The notes beneath the pieces were generated by a model, which worked only from the letters and a program-made list of their open reading frames with translations, ran no database searches and was not told the DNA's origin. From NCBI GenBank assembly GCA_030636025.1, contig DAOVXQ010000002.1, positions 10,848-74,847 on the forward strand: a stretch of DNA of 64,000 nt, written 5' to 3'. The position numbers were made by a program, and so were the translations under genes. Source of the stretch: an archaeon. Its GTDB lineage: Archaea > Nanobdellota > Nanobdellia > Pacearchaeales > GW2011-AR1. Below are positions 4,376-37,712 of this stretch, piece by piece; within the stretch, counting starts at the first letter, position 1; each line of letters begins with the position of its first letter.

Positions 4376-7339
4376 ATGAAATCAAAATTAGAAATCCCAA
4401 GATATTTTACAGAAGAAGGAAAGACACCTACTGATTCTTTTGACTGGATAAAAAGTAAGGTTGAAATTAAAGATAATTCTGGGAATTCAATTTATTCTGG
4501 AAAAGGATTAAAATTCCCTGATTTTTGGGGAGAACTACCAAGAAAAGTTGTTGCAAGCAAGTATTTTTATAGAGGGGATAGCGAGGATTATGTTGAAAAG
4601 GATTTAAGTAAGTTAGTTAAAAGAGTTACAGAAACAATATCTAATAGTGGGATTAAACAAGGGTATTTCTCTGGAGAAGATGCATCCAGACTTTCTGACG
4701 AAATTTCATATATAGTAATGGACCAAAGATTTGCCTTTAATTCTCCTGTTTGGTTTAATGTAGGATTATTTGAGAATTATGGAATAAAGGAAAAATCAAA
4801 TGGAAATTCATCTCACTGGGCAATTAATGAGCAAGGAAAATTTACTAATGAAATAGATGTTTATGAAAGACCCCAGGCATCTGCATGTTTCATTATGTCT
4901 ATAGATGACGACATGAGAAGCCTTATGAAACATTCTGAAAAAGAAGCAATGTTATTTAAACTTGGTTCTGGAACAGGGACTAATTATGGTTTGTTAAGGG
5001 GAGTTAGAGAACCCTTAAGTGGGGGGGGATATGCAAGTGGACAAACTTCTTTTATGAAAATATTTGATATTATTGCAGGAAGTGTTCAGTCAGGGGGAAA
5101 AACAAGAAGAGCAGCTAAAATGGTTATAGAACCTTGTGACCACCCAGATTTATTTAGATTTATTAATTGGAAAGTAGAAGAAGAAAAAAAAGGCCTTTGG
5201 TTATGTGCTAATCAAAGATGGGGTCCAAAAAGTTCTGGAGATTTAGAAAGTGAAGCATATAAAACTGTCGGGGGTCAAAACGGAAACAATAGCATAAGAG
5301 TAACTGATGAATTTATGGGGGCAGCCTTAAGAGGAGAAGATTGGAATTTATGGTTTATAACCGGGGACAGGTTTGACAATGAAGTAGAAATAGCTTTAGA
5401 AGATTATTCAGATGATAGATATCTTCCAGATAAAAGATTTATTAAAAAATTAACTAACAAGAAAAAAATAATAAATGCAGGAGAAGCTTTAGAACAAATA
5501 GCAAGGGCAGCAGCAGTTACAGGAGACCCTTCTTTACAATATGATAGCACAATAAATAAATGGCATACCTGCCCTAATTCTGGAAGAATAAATGCCAGTA
5601 ATCCTTGTTCTGAATATATGTTCATAGATGATTCTGCCTGCAATCTTGCTTCTCTAAACCTCACAAAATTTAGAGATAAAAACTCAGGAGAGATAATTAA
5701 TATAGATTCTTTAAATCAAGCAGTTAGAAATTCTATTATTGCACAAGATATTATTGTTGATTATGCATCTTATCCTGATAAAAAAATTGCGATAAACTCT
5801 CATTTATTTAGGGCATTAGGGCTAGGGTATACAAATCTCGGGGCATTATTAATGGAGAATGGAATTGCTTATGATTCTGATGAGGGCAGAGCAATTGCCT
5901 CTGCAGTAACTTCCTTGATGACTGCTCAAGCTTATCAAACTTCTGCTGAACTTGCATCTAAGATAGGTGCTTTTGAAGAATTTGAAAAAAACAAGGAGCC
6001 AATGTTAAATGTTTTAAAAATGCATCATGAAGAAATAAAAAAAATTAAAAGAATTAAAGAAGTTAAAGGATTAGAAACAATTATCGATGCTGCAGATAAT
6101 GCCTGGCAGGATGCTATTGAAAAAGGAGAGCAGTATGGATTTAGAAATGCGCAGGTTACTCTTCTTGCACCTACTGGAACAATTGGATTTATGATGGATG
6201 TTGATTGCACAGGAATTGAGCCAATGCCTGCCTTGGTTTATGACAAAGGACTTGCAGGAGGAGGAGAGTTAGAAATGAATATTAAACCTTGTGTTACAAA
6301 AGGATTAGAAACATTAGGATATAAACAAGAGAGATTAGAAGAAATATTAAGTTATGCGAAAGAAAATGGGACTATTGTGGACGCCCCCCATTTAAAGGAA
6401 GAGCACTACAATGTATTTGCTACTGCTTTTGGAGACAATACAATTTGTGTTGATGGGCATTTAAAAATGATGGCTGCAGTCCAACCTTTTTTATCTGGAG
6501 CCATCTCAAAAACAGTTAATCTCCCAAAAGGTGCAACAATACAAGATGTCAGAGATACCTATATCAAAGGTTGGAAACTTGGTTTAAAATCTATAAGTTT
6601 GTATATTGATGGTTCTAAGGGAGTGCAACCACTTAATATAAAAACAAAACAAAACGGAAAAGAATTAAAATGGGGTGAAAAAGTTAAACCTAGAAATCCC
6701 ATGATGCCTTCAGGATTTATAGAAAGACCAGGATGGAATGTTGAGATTGGGAGGAATGGAGTTCATTTAATGGTTGGAGAATATCCTGATAGGTCTCCAA
6801 AAGATTCTCCTGCAGACTTTTTTGTTGAGTTTGGAAGTGCAGGTTCTGAATTTAGTGCAGTTTACACTGACTGGGCAAAAGAAGCATCAAGAAATAGGCA
6901 GAGGGGCATGCCCTTAGATGAATTTATAAAACATAATAAATCATCTTCAGACCCTGTCAACGGTTTTACAGACCATCAATTTATAAAAAGTTGCAAAGGG
7001 ATAAAAGATTTTTTTATAAAATTGATTCAGTTAGAATACTTAGGAGATACAAGTGTTTGCGATGTTCAGCCAACAGATAAGCAATTAAGAGAATTGAGAT
7101 GCAATGTTTTGGCTGATAGAAGGAGAATTCGGCACTATCAGTCAAGAATAGACTTTATTGAATTTGCCATGGAAGACGGAGAATTAACAGAAATTTTTCC
7201 ACTATATGAAGATAAACTAAAATCTGGTGAAATGTCTGTTATGGATATTTTTTGTGTAAATTGCGGAAGTAAAACTGTTCCAAGCGGGGCTAACTGCAGA
7301 AAGTGTCCAAATTGTGGAGATTCTGCAGGTTGCGGTTAA
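4376..7339 (+). CDS. nrdJ: class II (adenosylcobalamin-dependent) ribonucleotide reductase
   Basis: NPCSEYMFIDDSACNLASLNL active-site motif and a C-terminal CxxC...CxxC tail. ATG 4376 is preferred over GTG 4370. Confidence 0.9.
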   Translation: MKSKLEIPRYFTEEGKTPTDSFDWIKSKVEIKDNSGNSIYSGKGLKFPDFWGELPRKVVASKYFYRGDSEDYVEKDLSKLVKRVTETISNSGIKQGYFSGEDASRLSDEISYIVMDQRFAFNSPVWFNVGLFENYGIKEKSNGNSSHWAINEQGKFTNEIDVYERPQASACFIMSIDDDMRSLMKHSEKEAMLFKLGSGTGTNYGLLRGVREPLSGGGYASGQTSFMKIFDIIAGSVQSGGKTRRAAKMVIEPCDHPDLFRFINWKVEEEKKGLWLCANQRWGPKSSGDLESEAYKTVGGQNGNNSIRVTDEFMGAALRGEDWNLWFITGDRFDNEVEIALEDYSDDRYLPDKRFIKKLTNKKKIINAGEALEQIARAAAVTGDPSLQYDSTINKWHTCPNSGRINASNPCSEYMFIDDSACNLASLNLTKFRDKNSGEIINIDSLNQAVRNSIIAQDIIVDYASYPDKKIAINSHLFRALGLGYTNLGALLMENGIAYDSDEGRAIASAVTSLMTAQAYQTSAELASKIGAFEEFEKNKEPMLNVLKMHHEEIKKIKRIKEVKGLETIIDAADNAWQDAIEKGEQYGFRNAQVTLLAPTGTIGFMMDVDCTGIEPMPALVYDKGLAGGGELEMNIKPCVTKGLETLGYKQERLEEILSYAKENGTIVDAPHLKEEHYNVFATAFGDNTICVDGHLKMMAAVQPFLSGAISKTVNLPKGATIQDVRDTYIKGWKLGLKSISLYIDGSKGVQPLNIKTKQNGKELKWGEKVKPRNPMMPSGFIERPGWNVEIGRNGVHLMVGEYPDRSPKDSPADFFVEFGSAGSEFSAVYTDWAKEASRNRQRGMPLDEFIKHNKSSSDPVNGFTDHQFIKSCKGIKDFFIKLIQLEYLGDTSVCDVQPTDKQLRELRCNVLADRRRIRHYQSRIDFIEFAMEDGELTEIFPLYEDKLKSGEMSVMDIFCVNCGSKTVPSGANCRKCPNCGDSAGCG

Positions 7340-8999: not shown

Positions 9000-9074
9000 G
9001 GCCCTATAGCTCAGCCTGGTTAGAGCACTGGCCTTTTAAGCCAGGTGTCGGGGGTTCAAATCCCCCTGGGGCCA
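9000..9074 (+). tRNA. tRNA-Lys (anticodon UUU at 9035-9037), CCA not encoded
   Basis: Hand-folded cloverleaf. Acceptor GGCCCTA/TGGGGCC, D stem GCTC/GAGC, anticodon stem CTGGC/GCCAG with loop CTTTTAA, T arm GGGGG-TTCAAAT-CCCCC. Confidence 0.9.
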
Positions 9075-10259: not shown

Positions 10260-13200
10260 TGCAAATTCAACAGCCAAAAGAAGAGCACATTCTTGTGAAA
10301 AAATATTTGAAAGAGCACAGCTTAGTTGAGTCAAATATAACTTCGTTTAATGATTTTATGAACCATCGGATGCAGGAGATTGTGAATGAGATAAGTAATT
10401 CTATTTCTGACGACGAACATGAAATAAGTTTAGGTAAAATTAAAATAGACAAGCCGATTATTATTGAGGCAGATGGGAGCTCTCATCTTTTGGCGCCGGC
10501 AGAGGCAAGAATCAGGGGGCTGACTTATTCTGCGCCTGTTAGTTTAGAGATTACAATAAAACAGGAAGGACAATTAGAAAGCCATAATGTTGAAATCGGG
10601 AAAATCCCAATCATAATCAAAAGTGATGCGTGTAATTTGTCAGGAATGTCAAAAGAAGAACTAGTAAAAAATTATGTTGACCCATTAGACCCAGGTGGTT
10701 ATTTTATTATTAATGGAAATGAACGAGTAATTGTAATGACAGAGGATTTAGCAGCGAATCAACCATTTATTGAAAAAGCCAAAGGAACTAAAAAAGGAGT
10801 TATGCTGAGGTTGTTTTCTCAAAGAGGGAGCTACAGAATTCCAATAACAATAACAGACACCAACGAAGGAATTATTGAGGTTTCATTTAGCAGATTTAAA
10901 AATATCCCGCTCGTAGTATTATTAAAAGCATTAGGGCTAACTAAAGAAAGTGATATTGCAAAACATATAGATAAAGAGACAGATAGTTTAATTGTTAATT
11001 TATATGAATTCGCAGGGATTCAAAATGAGAAGGATGCAATGATGGCGATTGCTGAACAGACTTCTCTTCAGGGAACAGAAAAAGAAATTCTTGACAGAAT
11101 TAAACAACGGCTTGATTCGTATTTTTTGCCCCATATTGGATTGGAAAAAGAAGACAGGGTTGAAAAAGCGATTACTATCTGCAAGTTTGTGAAACAGTTT
11201 TTAATTGCAAAAGAAAATGTAGAGAGTTTGACTGACAAAGACCATTATGCAAATAAAAGGGTCAGGATGTCAGGTGATTTGCTCGGAGATTTATTCAGGG
11301 TTAATTTAAATATTTTAATTAGGGATATTCAACATTCATTGCAAAAAATTCAAAAGAGAAAGAAATTTTATTCTATAAAGTCGATTGCGAAGTCTACTTT
11401 GTTTACTCATCGGGTTAAAAGTGCGATTGCAACAGGTAACTGGATTGGCGAGAGAACAGGGGTTACACAAAATATGGATAAGACAAATTACCTTGCTATT
11501 TTGTCTCAATTACAAAGAGTTTCAAGTATGTTGCCTGGTGAACAGGAAAATTTCCTGGCAAGAACACTGCACCCAACTCATTATGGAAGATTTTGCCCTG
11601 TTGAAACACCAGAAGGAACTGAAATCGGGCTAAGAAAAAATTTGGCCTTGCTGGCAAGAATTTCTACAAGGGCTGATTTAGAAAACAAGGATTTTATTAA
11701 AGAGTTAATAGAACTGGGGATGAAAAAAGAAATTGAAGAAGAGTCTGGAAGCGATGTTTTTTACAATGGGAGATTTATTGGGCATGTGAAAAATTTTAAA
11801 GAATTTATTTTTAATTTAAAATCAAAAAGAAGAAATGGGGAATTGCCAATTGAATTAAGTATTAGATTTAATAAAGTTTTGGATAGTATTATTTTGTCCA
11901 CAGAAGTTGGGAGAGTAATGAGGCCGTTGATAATTGTTGAGAATGGAAAAAGTAAATTAACAGAAGAGCATATTAAACTTTTAAAAGAAGATGCATTATC
12001 CTGGAAGGAACTTTTAAAGAGAGGGGTTATTGAATACCTCGACGCTGCTGAAGAAGAAAATGCTTTGGTTGCCTTGGATAAAAAAGATATTGCAGAAGAG
12101 TATACTCATTTAGAAATTGATAAAATTGATTTGTTGGGGGTTGTTACTTCTTTAGTTCCTTATGCAAATTATGACCAGAGTTCAAGATTAAACAGGGGGA
12201 GTAAAACCCAGAAGCAGGGTTTGGGATTATATGCTGCGAATTTTTTTACAAGGATTGACACTGATGTTAGTATTTTGCACTACCCGCAAAAACCAATTGT
12301 CAGAAGTTTTATCTACGACACTTTAGAGGTCCATCCTGCAGGACAAAATGTTATGGTCGCTATTATGACTCACGAGGGTTATAACATGGAAGATGCCTTA
12401 ATTTTAAATCAGGGGAGCATTGACAGAGGATTGGGGAGGAGCACATATTTCAGACCATACACTTCTATTGAATTAAATTATGCAGGCGGATTAAAAGACG
12501 AGATTACAATTCCTGAAAAAGAAGTTTCTGGTTACAGAACTGAAGAGAGTTATAGATTTTTAGAAGATGACGGCATTGCTTACCCTGAGGCGAAAATGAA
12601 CTCTGGGGAAGTTGTTATTGGAAAAACAAGTCCTCCGAAATTCTTGTCAGAAGTCAGGGAAATTTCAATTAAAGCAAGAAAAGAAGCGAGTTCGGTTATC
12701 AGGCAAGAAGAGTCAGCGATTGTTGATACTGTTTTTGTAACATCAGATAATCAGGGAAATAAAATAATTAGAGTTAAAACAAGAGACCAGAGAATTCCTG
12801 AGTTGGGGGATAAGTTTGCGACTTCCCACGGGCAGAAAGGGGTTGTCGGCGCGATTGTTCCTGAAAATGATATCCCTTTTACATCTCGAGGAATAAAACC
12901 AGATATTATTTTCAACCCGCACAGTATTCCAGGCAGAATGACTGTTGGTTATTTAATTGAATTATTAGCTGGAAAAGTTGCATGTTTATCAGGGAACATC
13001 GTCGATGGGACTGGTTTTTCAGGGCAAAAAATTACAGATTTAGAAGAGCAATTAAGAGAATCAGGATTTAGATTTGACGGCAAGGAAACTTTGTATAATG
13101 GAATTACTGGAAAAATAATGCGGGTTAAAATTTACATTGGGAACATGTATTATCTTAAATTAAAATATATGGTTAGCAATAAAATGCATGCTCGTGCTTC

Positions 13201-29966: not shown

Positions 29967-30272
29967 TTTATCTTGTAATTATAATAAATAAGTGCTTTAA
30001 AAACCTTTCGATTATGTAACTACTCTGAAGTTAGAAAGAGTGATTTAGGATTTCTTATACTAATATCTTAAAATACAATTTGTTTAGCTGATTAAAATTA
30101 TAAGATATAAATAAACAAAGAAAATTTGGGTTAAATTAAGGAAGGGTGACTTGTTAGGGAAACCATTGGTTTCCATACGATCATAAATTTTGGGCTGGCG
30201 AGCCAGATATTAGGAATTCACCAAAGCCACATTTTTCAGAACTTTTAAATACTTAGTTTACTAATTTTTCAT

Positions 30273-30761
30273 ATGGTTAAAAGAGGTTTGTTTAAAAATC
30301 AGGGGACTGATAAACTTAAAAAAAGAGTTGGAATTGCGTTGGTGATTTTAATTTTTGCATTAATTATTTTCACAGGATATTTTTTGTTTTTTTATCCAAA
30401 AGTATGTTCAGATAGTGCTTGTTTTTCTGATGCAATGAGAAGTTGCAAACATGTTTCCTGGATTAAAAAAGATGCTCAGGCAGATTGGATTTATATAATT
30501 AAAGGAAATGCAAAAGGAGATACTTGTAAAGTTGAAGTTACGTTAAAAAATATGAAAGCGGGAACAATTGACAGCGAGGCATTGCAAGGCAAGAAAATGT
30601 TGTGCACTGTTTTAAAAAGTGAGACAAATTTTCCTGAAAAAGATATTTCTCGTTGTAGCGGAGAATTAAAAGAAGAACTGCAGGACAGGATTATCCAGAG
30701 AATGCATAGTTATCTTCTTGAAAATGTCGGAGAAATTCAAGAGGAGTTTGCAGGGATTTAG
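30273..30761 (+). CDS. N-terminally anchored Cys-containing hypothetical protein (162 aa)
   Basis: TM helix IALVILIFALIIFTGYFLFFY. TATA-like TTTTAAATA (30243-30251) lies 22 nt before the ATG. Confidence 0.45.
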   Translation: MVKRGLFKNQGTDKLKKRVGIALVILIFALIIFTGYFLFFYPKVCSDSACFSDAMRSCKHVSWIKKDAQADWIYIIKGNAKGDTCKVEVTLKNMKAGTIDSEALQGKKMLCTVLKSETNFPEKDISRCSGELKEELQDRIIQRMHSYLLENVGEIQEEFAGI

Positions 30762-31025
30762 AAATGTGTTTGATGTTTGTGGTTTAATATTGGAATTTAG
30801 AGAAGTTTTTGCGAAGCAAAAATTTGGATGGAGAAAAAAGGATATTTTTCTGAAGATTTGAATATCTGTTAGTTTCCTCGAAAACTTGGAGAGCTAAATT
30901 TTAGTGCAAGGTTCCGAAGGAAAAATTTTCATTTCCAATCAATCCTGCGTTAGCAGACTATATTTTTTAAAGTCAGGAGTGTTCTATCTATGGGGTCTTG
31001 GCGGTACTTCTAGAACAAGAATAAA

Positions 31026-31700
31026 GGGGCTTTGGTGTTTTTTATGTTTGTTTTGAAGTTATTTATCATTTAATAGTAGTTATAATGGCGAAAGGTTTAT
31101 AAAGAACAATTTTATACTACCCATAAGTACGATAAGTCTAGATAAAATGGCAAAATATCAAAATTTACCCGATGGCCACAGTGCACTCATAGTTGGAGCT
31201 GCAGGAATGGGAACGCCTTCTGAATTACATTTGTTATTTGGAATAGGTAAGTTATATTTATATGGGGATGAGGCTGAACTTAGAACAGAGGGATTTGAAA
31301 AAGGAGTTGTAAAATATGCATATACTTCTATTCTTAATGGAAAAACTATCAAAATTGGAGTAATGCCCACTGTAGGTTATGGTGAAAGAATGGGTATCGA
31401 AATTCCTTTCAGTTCTAATGAAAAATTTTTAAATAAGGGTATTGATAATGATGTAATTCTCAATAGATGGGGTAACCCTGGAAAATACGATGGCAGAGCT
31501 GTTGTTTCTACTGCCACATTGAAAGAAGGCTTATTTACGGATGAAGGTGTTTGTATAGACGAATTAGTGAGACAAAATGTATCTAATCAAGGTGTTCTTC
31601 TCCATAATCACGGTCAGATTTTAAATGAACGATTATCTCAATTATTATATGATTTTCAATTAGGACAAGGACAATTTGAAAGGAATTGATCCAAAGCCCC
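31026..31700. repeat. inverted-repeat-bounded unit enclosing ORF 31147..31689
   Basis: GGGGCTTTGG (31026-31035) and CCAAAGCCCC (31691-31700) are a perfect 10-bp IR. The right arm starts 2 nt after the stop codon. Confidence 0.7.
31147..31689 (+). CDS. 180-aa hypothetical protein
   Basis: Clean ORF with TTTATAAA at 31096-31103. No family recognised. Confidence 0.45.
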   Translation: MAKYQNLPDGHSALIVGAAGMGTPSELHLLFGIGKLYLYGDEAELRTEGFEKGVVKYAYTSILNGKTIKIGVMPTVGYGERMGIEIPFSSNEKFLNKGIDNDVILNRWGNPGKYDGRAVVSTATLKEGLFTDEGVCIDELVRQNVSNQGVLLHNHGQILNERLSQLLYDFQLGQGQFERN

Positions 31701-31778
31701 CTTCCAAATTTAGCCCCCGACTTCTTAAAAAGTGAAAATTCGATTTTGTTTAACATCGGGCTTAAACAACCCGAAGGG

Positions 31779-31834
31779 CTCGAGGTGGAGGAAGATTTTT
31801 TGAGGCAGACCACAAAAAATCTGACGACCTCGAG
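31779..31834 (+). other. extended 56-nt hairpin in a structured spacer
   Basis: CTCGAGGT/ACCTCGAG (8 bp) closes AGATTTTTTG/CAAAAAATCT (10 bp). Confidence 0.5.
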
Positions 31835-31958
31835 GCTAAGAAATTTGGGTCAAAATCGGGAAATCGCTTGGCGATTTAGCGTAAGCGACCGATTTTGCCG
31901 TTAAATTCCGGTTAGTTTCTTTTTCCATACAAAGTATGGAAAAATTTCGTCCGAAAAG

Positions 31959-32549
31959 TCACGAGAACGCCGTTTTCGAGGGCGAAGCCCAATAAAACAA
32001 ATACCCCGAGGGAAGGAAATTTTCATTTCAGAATAGTTACAATGGAAATATTTAAAAAGTAGGTTCTATTCATCTTACCTATGAAAGATTCATTATTGGT
32101 ATTAGATGGTTCAGGAGGTGCTGCCGCTTCTGTAGGTTATCATAGAGAAGGCACCCATATGGGTGATAATTTAGGAAGAACCATTGAATTAGTAGATTCT
32201 ATAACAGAAGCAGAAGGGGCTTTAGAAGAAAGCTCAAATAGACCTTTTGGTGCTGTTTTGACAGAACCTATGATGTACTTTTTCAGAAAAGGAGATTTAT
32301 CAGAATATCAGGATTTTCTTAAGAGTTTAAGAACAGAAAGGGAAATCCCTGTTGTTATATATTCATCTCAAAAGGAAGATGTAGTAAATCGAGAGTTTGG
32401 TCTTGTAAAAGGAGTACATTATAATGTATATACACCAAAAGGAATTGCAGCAGAAGGAGAATCTGGTGCAGAACTCATGGTGAAGACAATAGAACAATTA
32501 TTACCTTCTTGAATTTCCTTCCCTTTCTATTTTTTAGGCGTTCTCGTGA
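31959..32549. repeat. double inverted-repeat-bounded unit enclosing ORF 32081..32512
   Basis: The outer IR is TCACGAGAACGCC (31959-31971) / GGCGTTCTCGTGA (32537-32549). The inner IR is AGGGAAGGAAATT (32009-32021) / AATTTCCTTCCCT (32512-32524), which overlaps the last base of the stop codon. Confidence 0.85.
32081..32512 (+). CDS. 143-aa hypothetical protein, possibly a degenerate receiver-like (CheY-fold) domain
   Basis: LLVLDGSGG..., AVLTEPMM, IPVVIYSSQ and TPKG loosely follow the REC strand pattern. TATA-like ATATTTAAAAA lies about 23 nt before the ATG. Confidence 0.4.
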   Translation: MKDSLLVLDGSGGAAASVGYHREGTHMGDNLGRTIELVDSITEAEGALEESSNRPFGAVLTEPMMYFFRKGDLSEYQDFLKSLRTEREIPVVIYSSQKEDVVNREFGLVKGVHYNVYTPKGIAAEGESGAELMVKTIEQLLPS

Positions 32550-32563
32550 TTGAAACTAACATC

Positions 32564-32629
32564 AGGATTATGAGAAGTTTGCGAAGCAAATTTGGGAAAA
32601 TTCCTGCAAGGGATTTTCCTCATAATCCT
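32564..32629 (+). ncRNA. candidate 66-nt three-helix structured RNA element
   Basis: The closing stem AGGATTATGAG/CTCATAATCCT encloses hairpin TTTGC-GAA-GCAAA and hairpin GGAAAAT(T)CCT-GCAA-GGGATTTTCC. Confidence 0.3.
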
Positions 32630-32684
32630 TGTTATATGAGGGTGAGCGTAACGTAGTGAAGCGAAAGTGCAACGTCCCCTTGAG

Positions 32685-32922
32685 TTTCTGAGCACACCTA
32701 TTTTCGGTATTTAAAAACTAAGAATACACCTGTGACCAAAAGCAATATTGCCATTCCAGTCATTATCCATCCATAAGTTTCTGGCATATGATTGGCAATA
32801 ACACCAACCAGAGTACCAAGACCTGCAAAAAATAACCCAATTCCTTGTTTTTTGTTTATTGATTTCATAATTATTATTTATTAATATATTAGTTATTAAA
32901 AAGCTTTCGGTGTGCTCAGAAA
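32685..32922. repeat. inverted-repeat-bounded unit enclosing the small minus-strand ORF 32698..32868
   Basis: TTTCTGAGCACACC (32685-32698) and GGTGTGCTCAGAAA (32909-32922) are a perfect 14-bp IR. One arm overlaps the stop codon. Confidence 0.85.
32698..32868 (-). CDS. 56-aa two-TM membrane protein (below the ORF-track cutoff)
   Basis: Translated by hand as MKSINKKQGIGLFFAGLGTLVGVIANHMPETYGWIMTGMAILLLVTGVFLVFKYRK. More plausible than the overlapping 86-aa track ORF. Confidence 0.45.
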   Translation of the reverse strand: MKSINKKQGIGLFFAGLGTLVGVIANHMPETYGWIMTGMAILLLVTGVFLVFKYRK

Positions 32923-33019
32923 TTTCATATAACATGATGGAAATAGAACTAAACTTCTGTTTACATCCCATAAGGGTATGTTTAGTAACCTTTTTATAAT
33001 GCCTTGTTTTTATAATGGT

Positions 33020-33823
33020 ATGGATGGCTTGCTCAAGAAATTAGAGGAGAATTTAAAGTTAAAAAATTATTCTCAGCAAACAATTAAATCTTATCTCAAT
33101 CATGTGGGGAATTATTTAAAATTTGCAAAAAATAAGGGGGTTAATCTGTTAAGTGTAAAAGAATTTTTAATAAAAAAACTATCTAAAAATGAACCTTCTT
33201 CAGTCGGACATAATGTTTTTGCTTTGAAATATTTTTTTAAGGAAATTCTTCATCAAGAGATAGAAATCCCTAATCCAAAAAGAAATAAAACAATCCCAGA
33301 AATTTTAACTATTAATGAAATCAAAAAACTAATTAATTCAACAAATAATATTAAACATAAATTAATCATCAAATTACTTTATGGTTGTGGTTTAAGGGTT
33401 TCTGAAATTGTTAATTTAGAAAATAACGATTTAAATTTTGATGAAGGATTGATTCACATTAAATTAGCTAAAGGTAAAAAAGATAGATTTGTTAAAATTC
33501 CAGATTCTATTAAAAAAGAAATAAAAAGTTATTGCAATATAAATAATTCTAAAATTTTATTTCCTTCAAATCGTAGGGGAAAATTAACAACCAAAACAAT
33601 TCAAAAAATAGTTCAAAATTCTGCAAAAAAAGCAGGTATTAAAAAAAGGGTTTATCCTCATCTTCTTCGGCATTCTTTTGCAACACATCTTCTTGAACAA
33701 GGAACTGATTTAAGAATTATCCAAAAATTATTAGGGCATTCGGATATTAAAACAACACAGATTTACACCCATATCTCACAAGCAAACATTAAAAATATAA
33801 ACTCTCCTTTGGAGAATATATAA
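33020..33823 (+). CDS. tyrosine recombinase, XerC/XerD/XerA-like
   Basis: GLRVSEIVNL (Arg I), HLLRHSFATHLL (H-x-x-R) and LGHSDIKTTQIYTH (catalytic Tyr). Start at MDGLLKK is preferred. Confidence 0.85.
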   Translation: MDGLLKKLEENLKLKNYSQQTIKSYLNHVGNYLKFAKNKGVNLLSVKEFLIKKLSKNEPSSVGHNVFALKYFFKEILHQEIEIPNPKRNKTIPEILTINEIKKLINSTNNIKHKLIIKLLYGCGLRVSEIVNLENNDLNFDEGLIHIKLAKGKKDRFVKIPDSIKKEIKSYCNINNSKILFPSNRRGKLTTKTIQKIVQNSAKKAGIKKRVYPHLLRHSFATHLLEQGTDLRIIQKLLGHSDIKTTQIYTHISQANIKNINSPLENI

Positions 33824-33825
33824 AA
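33782..33825 (+). repeat. 44-bp direct repeat, left copy (last 14 codons of the recombinase gene, including the stop, plus 2 nt)
   Basis: GCAAACATTAAAAATATAAACTCTCCTTTGGAGAATATATAAAA matches 37663-37706 at 43/44. Confidence 0.9.
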
Positions 33826-33848
33826 TAGAACGGGTGTTTTAATTAGTG

Positions 33849-35122: not shown

Positions 35123-35445
35123 AGTTAAATGTAGCTTAAGTGATATATAAGGCTTTCGTTTTTTTCTTATTATAACTTCAATGTAGCCCATATGTTTAAA
35201 GGGTCTTTTTTTAGAAATATTAAGCATAACATGCGCAGATAAAAGAAGTTTCTTGAAAAGAAATTTGGATGGAGTCTGCAAGGCGTAGTCTCTTAATCGC
35301 TGTTCACAGAAGTTTTAATTTTTCTTTTCAGGTTGGGCTGACGAAGTCGCATTATATTAGCGAGATTGCCCGCCGGTTTTTTTGCTTCTTTTTGGGGTGA
35401 AAAAGAAGATTTGGGAGTTCGCTTGTTTTTATGCTTAGAATAAAT

Positions 35446-37528: not shown

Positions 37529-37662
37529 TTAGAAACTCTCCCCGTAAATAGAAAAATTTGGGTGAACCGAAGCGAACTCTTTTATCCTTGGTTATGCAAA
37601 GTGCGAAGCATTTCGTTGGTTTTTTTCTTCGGTCGGATAAAGGAAGTTTTTGATTTCTAAAT

Positions 37663-37706
37663 GCAAACATTAAAAATATAAACTCTCCTTTGGATAATAT
37701 ATAAAA
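37663..37706 (+). repeat. 44-bp direct repeat, right copy
   Basis: GCAAACATTAAAAATATAAACTCTCCTTTGGATAATATATAAAA has one mismatch to 33782-33825 (G at 33814 versus T at 37695). Confidence 0.9.
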
Positions 37707-37712
37707 GAGAAG

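Follow-up and report, generated by a model that had tools for sequence, protein, structure and literature searches.

The 64,000-nucleotide stretch of DNA analysed here (the window; positions 10,848 to 74,847 of contig DAOVXQ010000002.1, assembly GCA_030636025.1) is an AT-rich (32% GC) segment of an archaeal chromosome, in which RNA polymerase subunits, ribosomal proteins, EF-2 and a DnaG-type primase are encoded upstream of an island of small genes. This island, at 29.4–37.7 kb, is unlike the rest of the window, being made up of small genes without Pfam or NCBIfam families and of long structured intergenic regions, together with a toxin-antitoxin-like pair and one tyrosine recombinase. Three adjacent genes within it, designated open reading frames (ORFs) 31147, 32081 and 32698 after their lower coordinates, are each enclosed by inverted repeats (IRs), and the nature of these enclosed units, called cassettes below, is the subject of this analysis. 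The repeats are referred to as boxes and the conserved flanks of a cassette as its frame. The contigs related to the window, labelled Candidatus Woesearchaeota with one exception taken up below, are designated L004–L008, L012–L016 and L085, L014 being CAYFMJ010000022.1. The features of the cassettes and of their immediate neighbour are as follows.

30868–30876, plus strand: GTTA core with variable remainder, R′-like, GTTAGTTTC, a 9-mer that recurs at 31911; probably the 5′ limit of the ORF 31147 cassette.
30893–30901, plus strand: upstream box GCTAAATTT of the ORF 31147 cassette, pairing with AAATTTAGC at 31706–31714 in a colinear chain.
31026–31035, plus strand: upstream inner box GGGGCTTTGG of the ORF 31147 cassette, pairing with CCAAAGCCCC at 31691–31700.
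31077–31104, plus strand: promoter module TAGTTATA...TTTATAAAG of ORF 31147, kept in L013 and L014.
31147–31689, plus strand: cargo ORF of 180 aa, with no Pfam or NCBIfam match.
31691–31714, plus strand: downstream boxes CCAAAGCCCC (31691–31700) and AAATTTAGC (31706–31714), homologous to the downstream module of L013 and L014.
31748–31914, plus strand: hairpin site between cassettes, its stem partly decayed, GTTTAAC-ATC-GGGCTTAAAC ... GTTAAATTCCG-GTTA, homologous to sites of L013 and L014.
31911–31919, plus strand: GTTA core with remainder GTTAGTTTC, start of the ORF 32081 cassette, pairing with GAAACTAAC at 32552–32560.
31950–32555, plus strand: segment matching the L008 insert in sequence, gapless and 90.4% identical.
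31959–31971, plus strand: upstream outer box TCACGAGAACGCC of the ORF 32081 cassette, covarying with its partner across seven frames.
31981–31989, plus strand: mini-hairpin GGCGAAGCC (GAA triloop) in the 37-nt upstream spacer, its stem covarying (GGGCGAAGCCC in L004, GCCCGAAGGGC in L012).
32009–32021, plus strand: upstream inner box AGGGAAGGAAATT of the ORF 32081 cassette, pairing with AATTTCCTTCCCT and part of the covariation alignment.
32034–32059, plus strand: promoter module TAGTTACAATGG...TTTAAAAAG, with a TATA-like box about 30 nt before the ATG, kept in L008, L004 and L012.
32081–32512, plus strand: cargo ORF of 143 aa, of no family, with five homologues only.
32512–32524, plus strand: downstream inner box AATTTCCTTCCCT, overlapping the last base of the stop codon.
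32525–32536, plus strand: T-rich spacer TTCTATTTTTTA, 12 nt long as in all seven frames.
32537–32549, plus strand: downstream outer box GGCGTTCTCGTGA, pairing and covarying with TCACGAGAACGCC.
32549–32635, plus strand: inter-cassette hairpin read from the single-stranded DNA fold, ATTG-GAAAC-TAAC-ATC, stem AGGATTATGAG, two GNA mini-hairpins, stem′ CTCATAATCCT, T-GTTA.
32630–32639, plus strand: GTTA core with remainder TGTTATATGA, one end of the small-gene cassette, pairing with TCATATAACA at 32925–32934.
32685–32698, plus strand: box TTTCTGAGCACACC, pairing with GGTGTGCTCAGAAA at 32909–32922, the best perfect IR of the window.
32698–32868, minus strand: cargo ORF of 56 aa with two predicted membrane helices, antiparallel to the array.
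32909–32934, plus strand: box GGTGTGCTCAGAAA (32909–32922) and TAAC-side box TCATATAACA (32925–32934).
33020–33823, plus strand: XerA-type tyrosine recombinase (NCBIfam recomb_XerA_Arch), neighbour of the array.

All repeat arms reported in an earlier note on this DNA were recovered where it had placed them, as was the geometry it described, with a distal arm directly adjoining the stop codon and a proximal arm placed upstream of a TATA-like box. Its list of repeats was correct as far as it went, further nested boxes being present as well (GTTAGTTTC/GAAACTAAC, TGTTATATGA/TCATATAACA and GCTAAATTT/AAATTTAGC), so that the upstream and downstream halves of a cassette pair through two to four nested, colinear boxes. 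A 7-bp repeat that it had proposed around ORF 30273 was not borne out, since its chain score of 7.3 lies within the non-cognate range, at noise level. When all perfect IRs 10 nt or longer whose arms begin no more than 1500 nt from each other were given a composition-weighted score over the whole window (n = 358), the 14-nt pair (32685/32909) and the outer 13-nt pair (31959/32537) ranked as the top two, less than 1 kb apart, and the inner 13-nt pair (32009/32512) ranked fifth. At a score of at least 8.85, two pairs were observed, against 0.11 per window expected from 100 dinucleotide shuffles. The 10-nt pair (31026/31691), with a score of 6.68, is not significant alone, as 17 pairs were seen at or above 6.65 where about 12.8 were expected; however, it occupies a position homologous to the inner box of the L013 and L014 frames and is therefore considered real despite its weak statistics. 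In a gene-by-gene comparison, in which the 260 nt upstream of each of 62 window genes were matched with its own 200 nt downstream and set against non-cognate flank pairs, only ORF 32081 (35.9), ORF 32698 (26.2) and ORF 31147 (15.4) exceeded the non-cognate 99th percentile (14.85). Flank self-pairing is therefore real, local and limited, within the window, to these three adjacent genes. That the repeats are chance matches in an AT-rich genome would suit the abundance of 10-nt IRs and the noise-level 7-nt case, but it accommodates neither the closeness and nested, colinear order of the top-scoring pairs nor their compensatory conservation in independent assemblies, which refutes it for the 13–14-nt pairs; as an explanation of the whole it is virtually negligible.

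The compensatory changes were recognised by comparison of ORF 32081 with its five homologues, the encoded protein being 57% identical in L012 and 64% in L004. At the same positions, the outer pair reads TCACGAGAACGCC/GGCGTTCTCGTGA in the window, TTTTTAAGAACGCC/GGCGTTCTTAAAAA in L012, with four compensated positions, and TTTTCAAAAATCC/GGATTTTTGAAAA in L004, while the inner pair shifts from GGAAATT/AATTTCC to GGGAAT/ATTCCC among orthologous loci. In a register-fixed alignment of seven frames, 88.5% of the cells were paired, against 75.4% after shuffling (0 of 500 shuffles reached the observed value), and double-sided changes were found in 16 of 31 pairs, a count reached by one shuffle in 500; sliding the alignment by one to three columns lowered the pairing to 41–61%. 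The spacers between the boxes were constant in all seven frames, with 36–37 nt upstream, including the GNA mini-hairpin, and 12 T-rich nt downstream, and the polarity of promoter and gene relative to these asymmetric 37/12-nt spacers was likewise the same in 7/7. Additionally, GT positions, which would be G·U in RNA, extend several helices, such as the AG/TT beside the outer box and three wobbles in L012.

The flanks of ORF 32081 and ORF 31147 represent two conserved frame types whose cargo differs among Woesearchaeota-type contigs. In L016, the outer and inner boxes of the window surround an unrelated gene of 234 aa, and the YkuD cassette of L004 and a 92-aa cassette of L012 are framed likewise. 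The flanks of ORF 31147 are homologous to the frame type of L013 and L014, which are about 90% identical to each other over the upstream ~240 nt up to the ATG and share ~70 nt downstream, the framed proteins (274 aa and 122 aa, respectively) being unrelated. In L014, a 2-kb cassette whose HEPN and MNT genes share a strand while a methyltransferase gene occupies the opposite one is enclosed by AGGTGTTCGTTTC (1590/3434) and GGGCGGGCGTT (1639/3413), and a gene-free cassette of 247 nt (1066–1312) folds into one long hairpin (z = -6.1). The occurrence of a three-gene, both-strand cassette and of an empty one indicates that the boxes bracket cassettes, not genes or transcription units. Empty inner-box palindromes, with AGGGAAGG and CCTTCCC close together, were not found in the loci. 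Toxin-antitoxin-type genes and genes without homologues occur in and around the arrays, a context similar to that of sedentary integrons. The description of the arms as unique in the earlier note holds within the window but not beyond it, since the arms recur with other genes in other genomes.

Between cassettes lie hairpin sites of a single family, which can be written as ATTG-[4-5 variable nt]-TAAC-AT(C/T), an 11-bp stem-loop with GNA mini-hairpins, stem′ and T-GTTA-[variable nt]. The window site at 32549–32635 folds as single-stranded DNA at -19.2 kcal/mol, against -7.1 kcal/mol for shuffled sequence (z = -5.7), and the intergenic region 31690–32080 folds at z = -3.4. Among ten aligned sites, 98% of the cells were paired, a percentage biased upward by the choice of sites that have a stem, and double changes, which this choice leaves unaffected, occurred in 8 of the 11 stem pairs. 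The TAAC ... GTTA motif was invariant in 9–10 of the ten, in the manner of the AAC/GTT triplets of integrons, and the sites are arrayed in the same orientation, six of them in 5.5 kb of L014 and three or four at 30.8–33.0 kb of the window. The R-box type found at 31911 is also present in L004, L012, L015 and L005; the motif TTGAAACTAA, considered as a general site, was not enriched in the window and proved to be one R-box type.

The variable bases 3′ of GTTA complement the TAAC flank of the next site rather than that of their own site. This hybrid pattern holds in L014 for all five consecutive pairs (GTTATGTG/CACATAAC, GTTATATAC/GTATATAAC, GTTATATTC/GAATATAAC, GTTATACGC/GCGTATAAC and GTTATGCTC/GAGCATAAC), is also seen in L015, L012 and L004, and applies to two of the three window cassettes (GTTAGTTTC at 31911 with GAAACTAAC at 32552, and TGTTATATGA at 32630 with TCATATAACA at 32925). 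In integrons, the G|TT crossover leaves the R′ remainder of each cassette at its own 5′ end, and integron arrays show a hybrid-site signature for that reason. As to the strand involved, folding favours sense over antisense for 9 of 12 intergenic elements; this, together with the G·T positions that extend the helices, hints weakly at folding of the sense strand.

One cassette also occurs in a foreign context. Window positions 31950–32555 match, at the identity listed above, an insert of L008 located between an AlkD-like gene and Cbf5, with flanks of different composition (41% GC versus 35.5%). In the relative L085, the AlkD-like gene and Cbf5 overlap by 4 nt with nothing between them, which supports an insertion in L008, the exact boundaries and any target duplication being unreadable from L085. 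This copy shows that the unit moves, by whatever route. The contigs that cover the window locus itself are colinear with the window.

The recombinase at 33020–33823 scores 250 bits against recomb_XerA_Arch (cut-off 220) and 216 against the integron-integrase model (cut-off 265), the latter in two stretches with the middle missing, and it lacks the integron-integrase insert. A tyrosine recombinase adjoins the array in the window and in L004; on L013, L014 and L016, which are short contigs, no recombinase gene was seen beside the framed cassettes. The functional link to a Xer-like recombinase suggested in the earlier note thus found no support, this being by its score an ordinary archaeal XerA and no recombinase gene having been seen on those three contigs; the link is one of conserved gene order in the window and L004, and membership of XerA in the system is a candidate only.

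Taken together, the nested architecture, the covariation of its arms, its independence of cargo, the hybrid-site pattern and one cassette in a foreign context lead us to favour, with moderate confidence, an integron-like array of single-strand fold-back gene cassettes in a DPANN archaeal chromosome, without assigning a recombinase to it. Among the explanations listed in the earlier note, that of integron-like cassettes is accordingly the one strengthened by arm covariation, unrelated cargo, the foreign-context copy and the hybrid sites, recombination itself being deduced from these sequence patterns. Under such a model, the variable bases after GTTA, which are the reverse complement of the variable bases before TAAC at the far end of the next cassette, would belong to that cassette and, because of this complementarity, the ends of a circularised or folded cassette would form one helix. 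In these cassettes, the R-box helix is prolonged in the direction of the cargo by one to three further boxes of 9–16 bp each, separated by fixed asymmetric spacers; the inverted repeats noted earlier are these extra boxes and would be the arms of one large imperfect fold-back, which integration would split to both sides of a cargo that comprises its own promoter, ORF and terminator. The model presupposes that the site and the ends of the cassette fold while single-stranded, and that a tyrosine-type recombinase, for which the adjacent XerA is a candidate, would exchange strands at the TAAC/GTTA core as occurs at integron attC. The extra helices may stabilise the fold in a very AT-rich genome or may juxtapose the two flanking sites of the cassette. 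Excision would be predicted to reseal the chromosome at ...GCCGTTAAATTCCGGTTA|TATGAGGGTG... and to yield a circle with the junction ...CTCATAATCCTTGTTA|GTTTCTTTTTCC....

The resemblance to integrons, including those already reported in Archaea (PMC9668308), extends to the content of the arrays, where most cassettes hold one gene and are of unknown function and genes of toxin-antitoxin type lie inside or alongside, to an imperfectly palindromic site after each cassette, with conserved AAC/GTT triplets and a structure that is kept while the sequence is not, to post-GTT bases that belong to the next cassette and pair with its own far end, and to sites that are more alike within a lineage than the cargo. 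The statement in the earlier note that no described system has this architecture therefore stands in part: the array logic matches that of integrons (PMC9668308), whereas no description of an end-to-end self-pairing cassette architecture was found in literature searches. Unlike in integrons, complementarity here extends past the 7-bp R box over up to four boxes (~35–55 bp in total), as far as promoter and stop codon, which places the cargo inside the loop of a very large fold-back; the stems are perfect, with no extrahelical bases and a 3/1-nt spacer; an additional conserved ATTG motif, ATG-distal, precedes the variable bases; and the cassettes bring their own promoter and terminator, with no IntI.

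Another system suitable for comparison is the CTX phage, whose attP, together with XerCD, is an example of an integrating element that uses folded single-stranded DNA and leaves complementary half-sites at its opposite ends. The common points would be a Xer-type recombinase, a substrate that arises by pairing of two inverted segments of one strand, and such half-sites after integration. However, the present elements are many small cassettes rather than a phage, no dif-like core has been demonstrated in them, and the role of XerA is a candidate one.

Several observations weigh against an integron-like array. No integron integrase was found, the neighbour being XerA, and the array runs toward the 5′ end of xerA, unlike the intI/attI arrangement. 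A stand-in attC covariance model, R1, built from eight experimentally used archaeal attC sites (PMC9668308, Data S9) and distinct from the IntegronFinder model, gave no match at the hairpin sites with filters on or off, and the perfect stems, devoid of extrahelical bases, have a spacer of 3/1 nt instead of ~5 nt; canonical attC identity was rejected on the negative stand-in model and the differing geometry. For the ORF 31147 cassette, no TAAC-side partner matching GTTAGTTTC at 30868 was found, leaving it without a GTTA/TAAC pair. The boxes are common but not universal, since the orthologue of ORF 32081 in L005–L007 has none. The L008 copy has neither hairpin site nor TAAC/GTTA boxes, and the distal outer arm is disrupted in it (7/13), so that it either moved by another route or decayed later. 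The contigs compared showed neither an excised circle nor an empty site, nor any alternative junction. Finally, the sample is small (~15 cassettes from 7 assemblies), and its ascertainment is biased because the cassettes were found through similarity to the window.

Among the alternatives, the least improbable are chains of palindromic non-coding elements resembling REPINs or bacterial interspersed mosaic elements (BIMEs), selfish or regulatory and possibly moved by HUH enzymes, which would bracket genes incidentally or would have received them in their loops, the cargo being swapped by homologous recombination between frames. REPINs and BIMEs are doublets of repetitive extragenic palindromic (REP) sequences that form hairpins and are moved by RAYT transposases; they contain no cargo gene, their two arms are copies of one REP sequence and are known to evolve by compensatory change, and their junctions do not each bear a hybrid core. 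The present elements share with them the intergenic hairpin units, the compensatory evolution of the arms and the empty unit, which would simply be a long hairpin, as well as an abundance of GNA triloops of the GCGAAGC type, which are typical of stable single-stranded DNA mini-hairpins; in addition, no dedicated recombinase was found, and the conserved frames could act as homology arms. However, the variable arms match across the cargo rather than inside one intergenic element and are specific to each unit, the cassettes carry cargo, and the strict GTTA/TAAC hybrid at every junction of L014 is expected of site-specific exchange at a fixed core. Besides, the L008 insert is bounded by the outer boxes without flanking homology, and no RAYT or HUH gene was present in the few local proteins scanned, RAYT not having been sought beyond local genes. 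Overall, this explanation appears unlikely. The bounding of the L008 copy by the outer boxes within a few bases agrees with a further proposal, that the arms are terminal inverted repeats of non-autonomous transposons, similar to miniature inverted-repeat transposable elements, that contain a passenger gene and are moved in trans by a DDE or other transposase. The conserved ends (AGT on the left, ATTG on the right) and the GAAA at both ends in the window and L008 are also in line with it, but arms that diverge widely and yet stay matched are unexpected for transposase-binding ends, and several nested boxes with fixed spacers are not a single terminal repeat. The supposed 4-nt duplication, seen as GAAA only in the window and L008, is absent from L012 and inexact in L004 and L016; there is no transposase nearby, and L085 gives no clean empty site. 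Such a transposon origin is distinctly improbable.

The two remaining readings attribute to the boxes a role in RNA or in inversion. If the stems acted in RNA, read-through or long primary transcripts would fold such that a long-range helix closes each cistron for processing, stabilisation or termination, as do the covarying long-range helices around functional units in archaeal rRNA processing stems and hok-type mRNAs with 5′-3′ fold-back. The better folding of the sense strand, the G·T positions, which would be G·U, and an L004 small-gene arm that covers GAGG and the ATG are compatible with this possibility. Nevertheless, the proximal arms lie upstream of a TATA-like box located ~30 nt ahead of the start codon in a gene that is probably leaderless and, thus, outside the predicted transcript, the distal outer arm lies beyond the T-run, and the boxes also enclose a both-strand, three-gene cassette and an empty unit; moreover, the stems have no Rfam match and no bulge-helix-bulge motif was recognised at them by eye. 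Because of the position of the proximal arms relative to the promoter and the enclosure of multi-gene and empty cassettes, the RNA explanation, which the earlier note had also offered, is disfavoured and has little probability. Inverton or shufflon segments, inverted by the neighbouring tyrosine recombinase or through recombination of the short repeats with each other, are suggested by the proximity of such a recombinase in the window and L004, by the opposite strands on which a small membrane gene lies in these two loci relative to the homologous flank, and by one box type that alternates in orientation in the window (30219, 31026 and 31691). However, promoter and gene keep one polarity in 7/7 frames, homology between the two small proteins could not be demonstrated, the recombinase is of the standard XerA type, and flipping a unit that has its own promoter would have no obvious effect. 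Since the arms differ between units and between genomes, a single sequence-specific invertase is unlikely as well, and this candidate of the earlier note, left unsupported, has a very low probability.

Concerning expression, the promoter module TAGTTAYA-N5-16-TTTWWAAAG occurs three times in the window, against 0.02 expected, with all copies in the island, at 29995–30022 (minus strand), 31077–31104 and 32034–32059. These belong to ORF 29445 (minus strand), ORF 31147 and ORF 32081, respectively, which suggests a common regulator of the three genes. Archaeal transcription terminates at oligo-T, and the T-rich spacer at 32525–32536 is likely a terminator.

The small-gene unit shows a further peculiarity. 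Its two-helix membrane-protein gene lies on the minus strand in the window (32698–32868) and on the plus strand in L004 (3133–3363), the flanking element being homologous, and the two proteins are not significantly similar, sharing only QGIG[LI]FF. In the L004 unit, the arm that covers GAGG and the ATG is TGCGAGGAAATG, and a 42-aa ORF of the other strand starts at the opposite arm; the two arrangements could represent a switchable pair.

Other observations concern remnants and repeats around the cassettes. The sequence CCAAAGCC(A/C)C is a direct repeat at 30219–30233, upstream of ORF 30273, and at 31691–31703, downstream of ORF 31147; both copies complement 31026–31037, and the repeat may be the downstream-module remnant of an earlier cassette arrangement. 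GCGAAGC mini-hairpin motifs cluster in the island (30811, 31982, 32581 and 37603), which holds four of the six window copies where two are expected window-wide, and GCGTAGC and GCGAAGC are frequent in related loci too. In L008, the relocated cassette is followed at 840–948 by ~110 nt with a remnant of a frame-type promoter (TAGAAGTAG...TATAAAAAC) that precedes Cbf5, which may thereby have acquired a cassette-derived promoter. In L005, a tandem duplication of ~31 nt (ttacttcttatggaaggctcactattagtat; 5865–5925) spans the start codon of the ORF 32081 orthologue.

Beyond the array, a 44-nt direct repeat with one mismatch, GCAAACATTAAAAATATAAACTCTCCTTTGGA[G/T]AATATATAAAA, is found at 33783–33826, where it comprises the 3′ end and stop codon of xerA, and at 37664–37707. 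It contains an imperfect palindrome, ATATAAACTCTCC-TTT-GGAGAATATAT, and its copies flank 3.8 kb of minus-strand genes for a DUF6036 nucleotidyltransferase, a winged helix-turn-helix protein and small helix-turn-helix-like ORFs, a configuration that looks like the attL and attR of an element that had inserted into the 3′ end of xerA. Two degenerate site- or frame-like elements lie between the copies of this repeat, at 35228–35310 and 37540–37650 (ATAACATG..., aaatttgg, GCGAAGC), whose folds are not significant; the element at 37540–37650 is homologous to L014 5300–5400.

Regarding the scope of the comparison, the related-locus search returned no loci beyond the first homologues from metagenome or genome collections, and L013–L016 were obtained by exact-pattern scans with the downstream motif that is conserved. 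A viral origin was rejected, as scanning IMG/VR with two motifs gave chance matches only. ORF 31147 had no homologue besides itself among 5.8 billion proteins, and paralogy was rejected because the island ORFs have no similarity to one another. ARAGORN and Rfam 15 at the gathering score identified tRNA-Lys (9000–9074) as the only match in the window, and Rfam 15 gave nothing at 29.4–33.1 kb even at E-values up to 10, apart from one chance match; a split or intron-containing tRNA, or another non-coding RNA with a gene in its intron, was rejected, tRNA-Lys at 9000 being all that was found. L014 is labelled as an uncultured Methanosarcinales metagenome-assembled genome, yet it is almost wholly a Woesearchaeota-type cassette array whose frames are ~90% identical to L013, and its label points to mis-binning or to transfer between phyla.

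The integron-like reading also touches on an open textbook issue, namely the origin of cassettes and the reach of the integron design beyond IntI and attC, for which a non-coding backbone of ~300–450 nt around unrelated ORFs, from start to stop, provides material. The extended pairing of the ends predicts a simple mechanism, in which base pairing would juxtapose the two recombination sites of a cassette. It is conceivable, if only tentatively, that these elements form a separate DPANN class of structure-specific, integron-like "self-synapsing cassettes", each a minimal expression vector composed of promoter, ORF, terminator and site, without IntI or canonical attC, that a housekeeping XerA-type enzyme might process. 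If so, the near-identical backbones around unrelated ORFs, from ATG to stop, would offer a direct view of cassette making. DPANN archaea have tiny genomes and depend on hosts and gene exchange, and if standard attC finders also miss these sites, cassette arrays would be under-counted in them. Likewise, if a plain XerA acts on the sites, this would imply wider roles of Xer recombinases in Archaea and a compact module that combines expression with integration.

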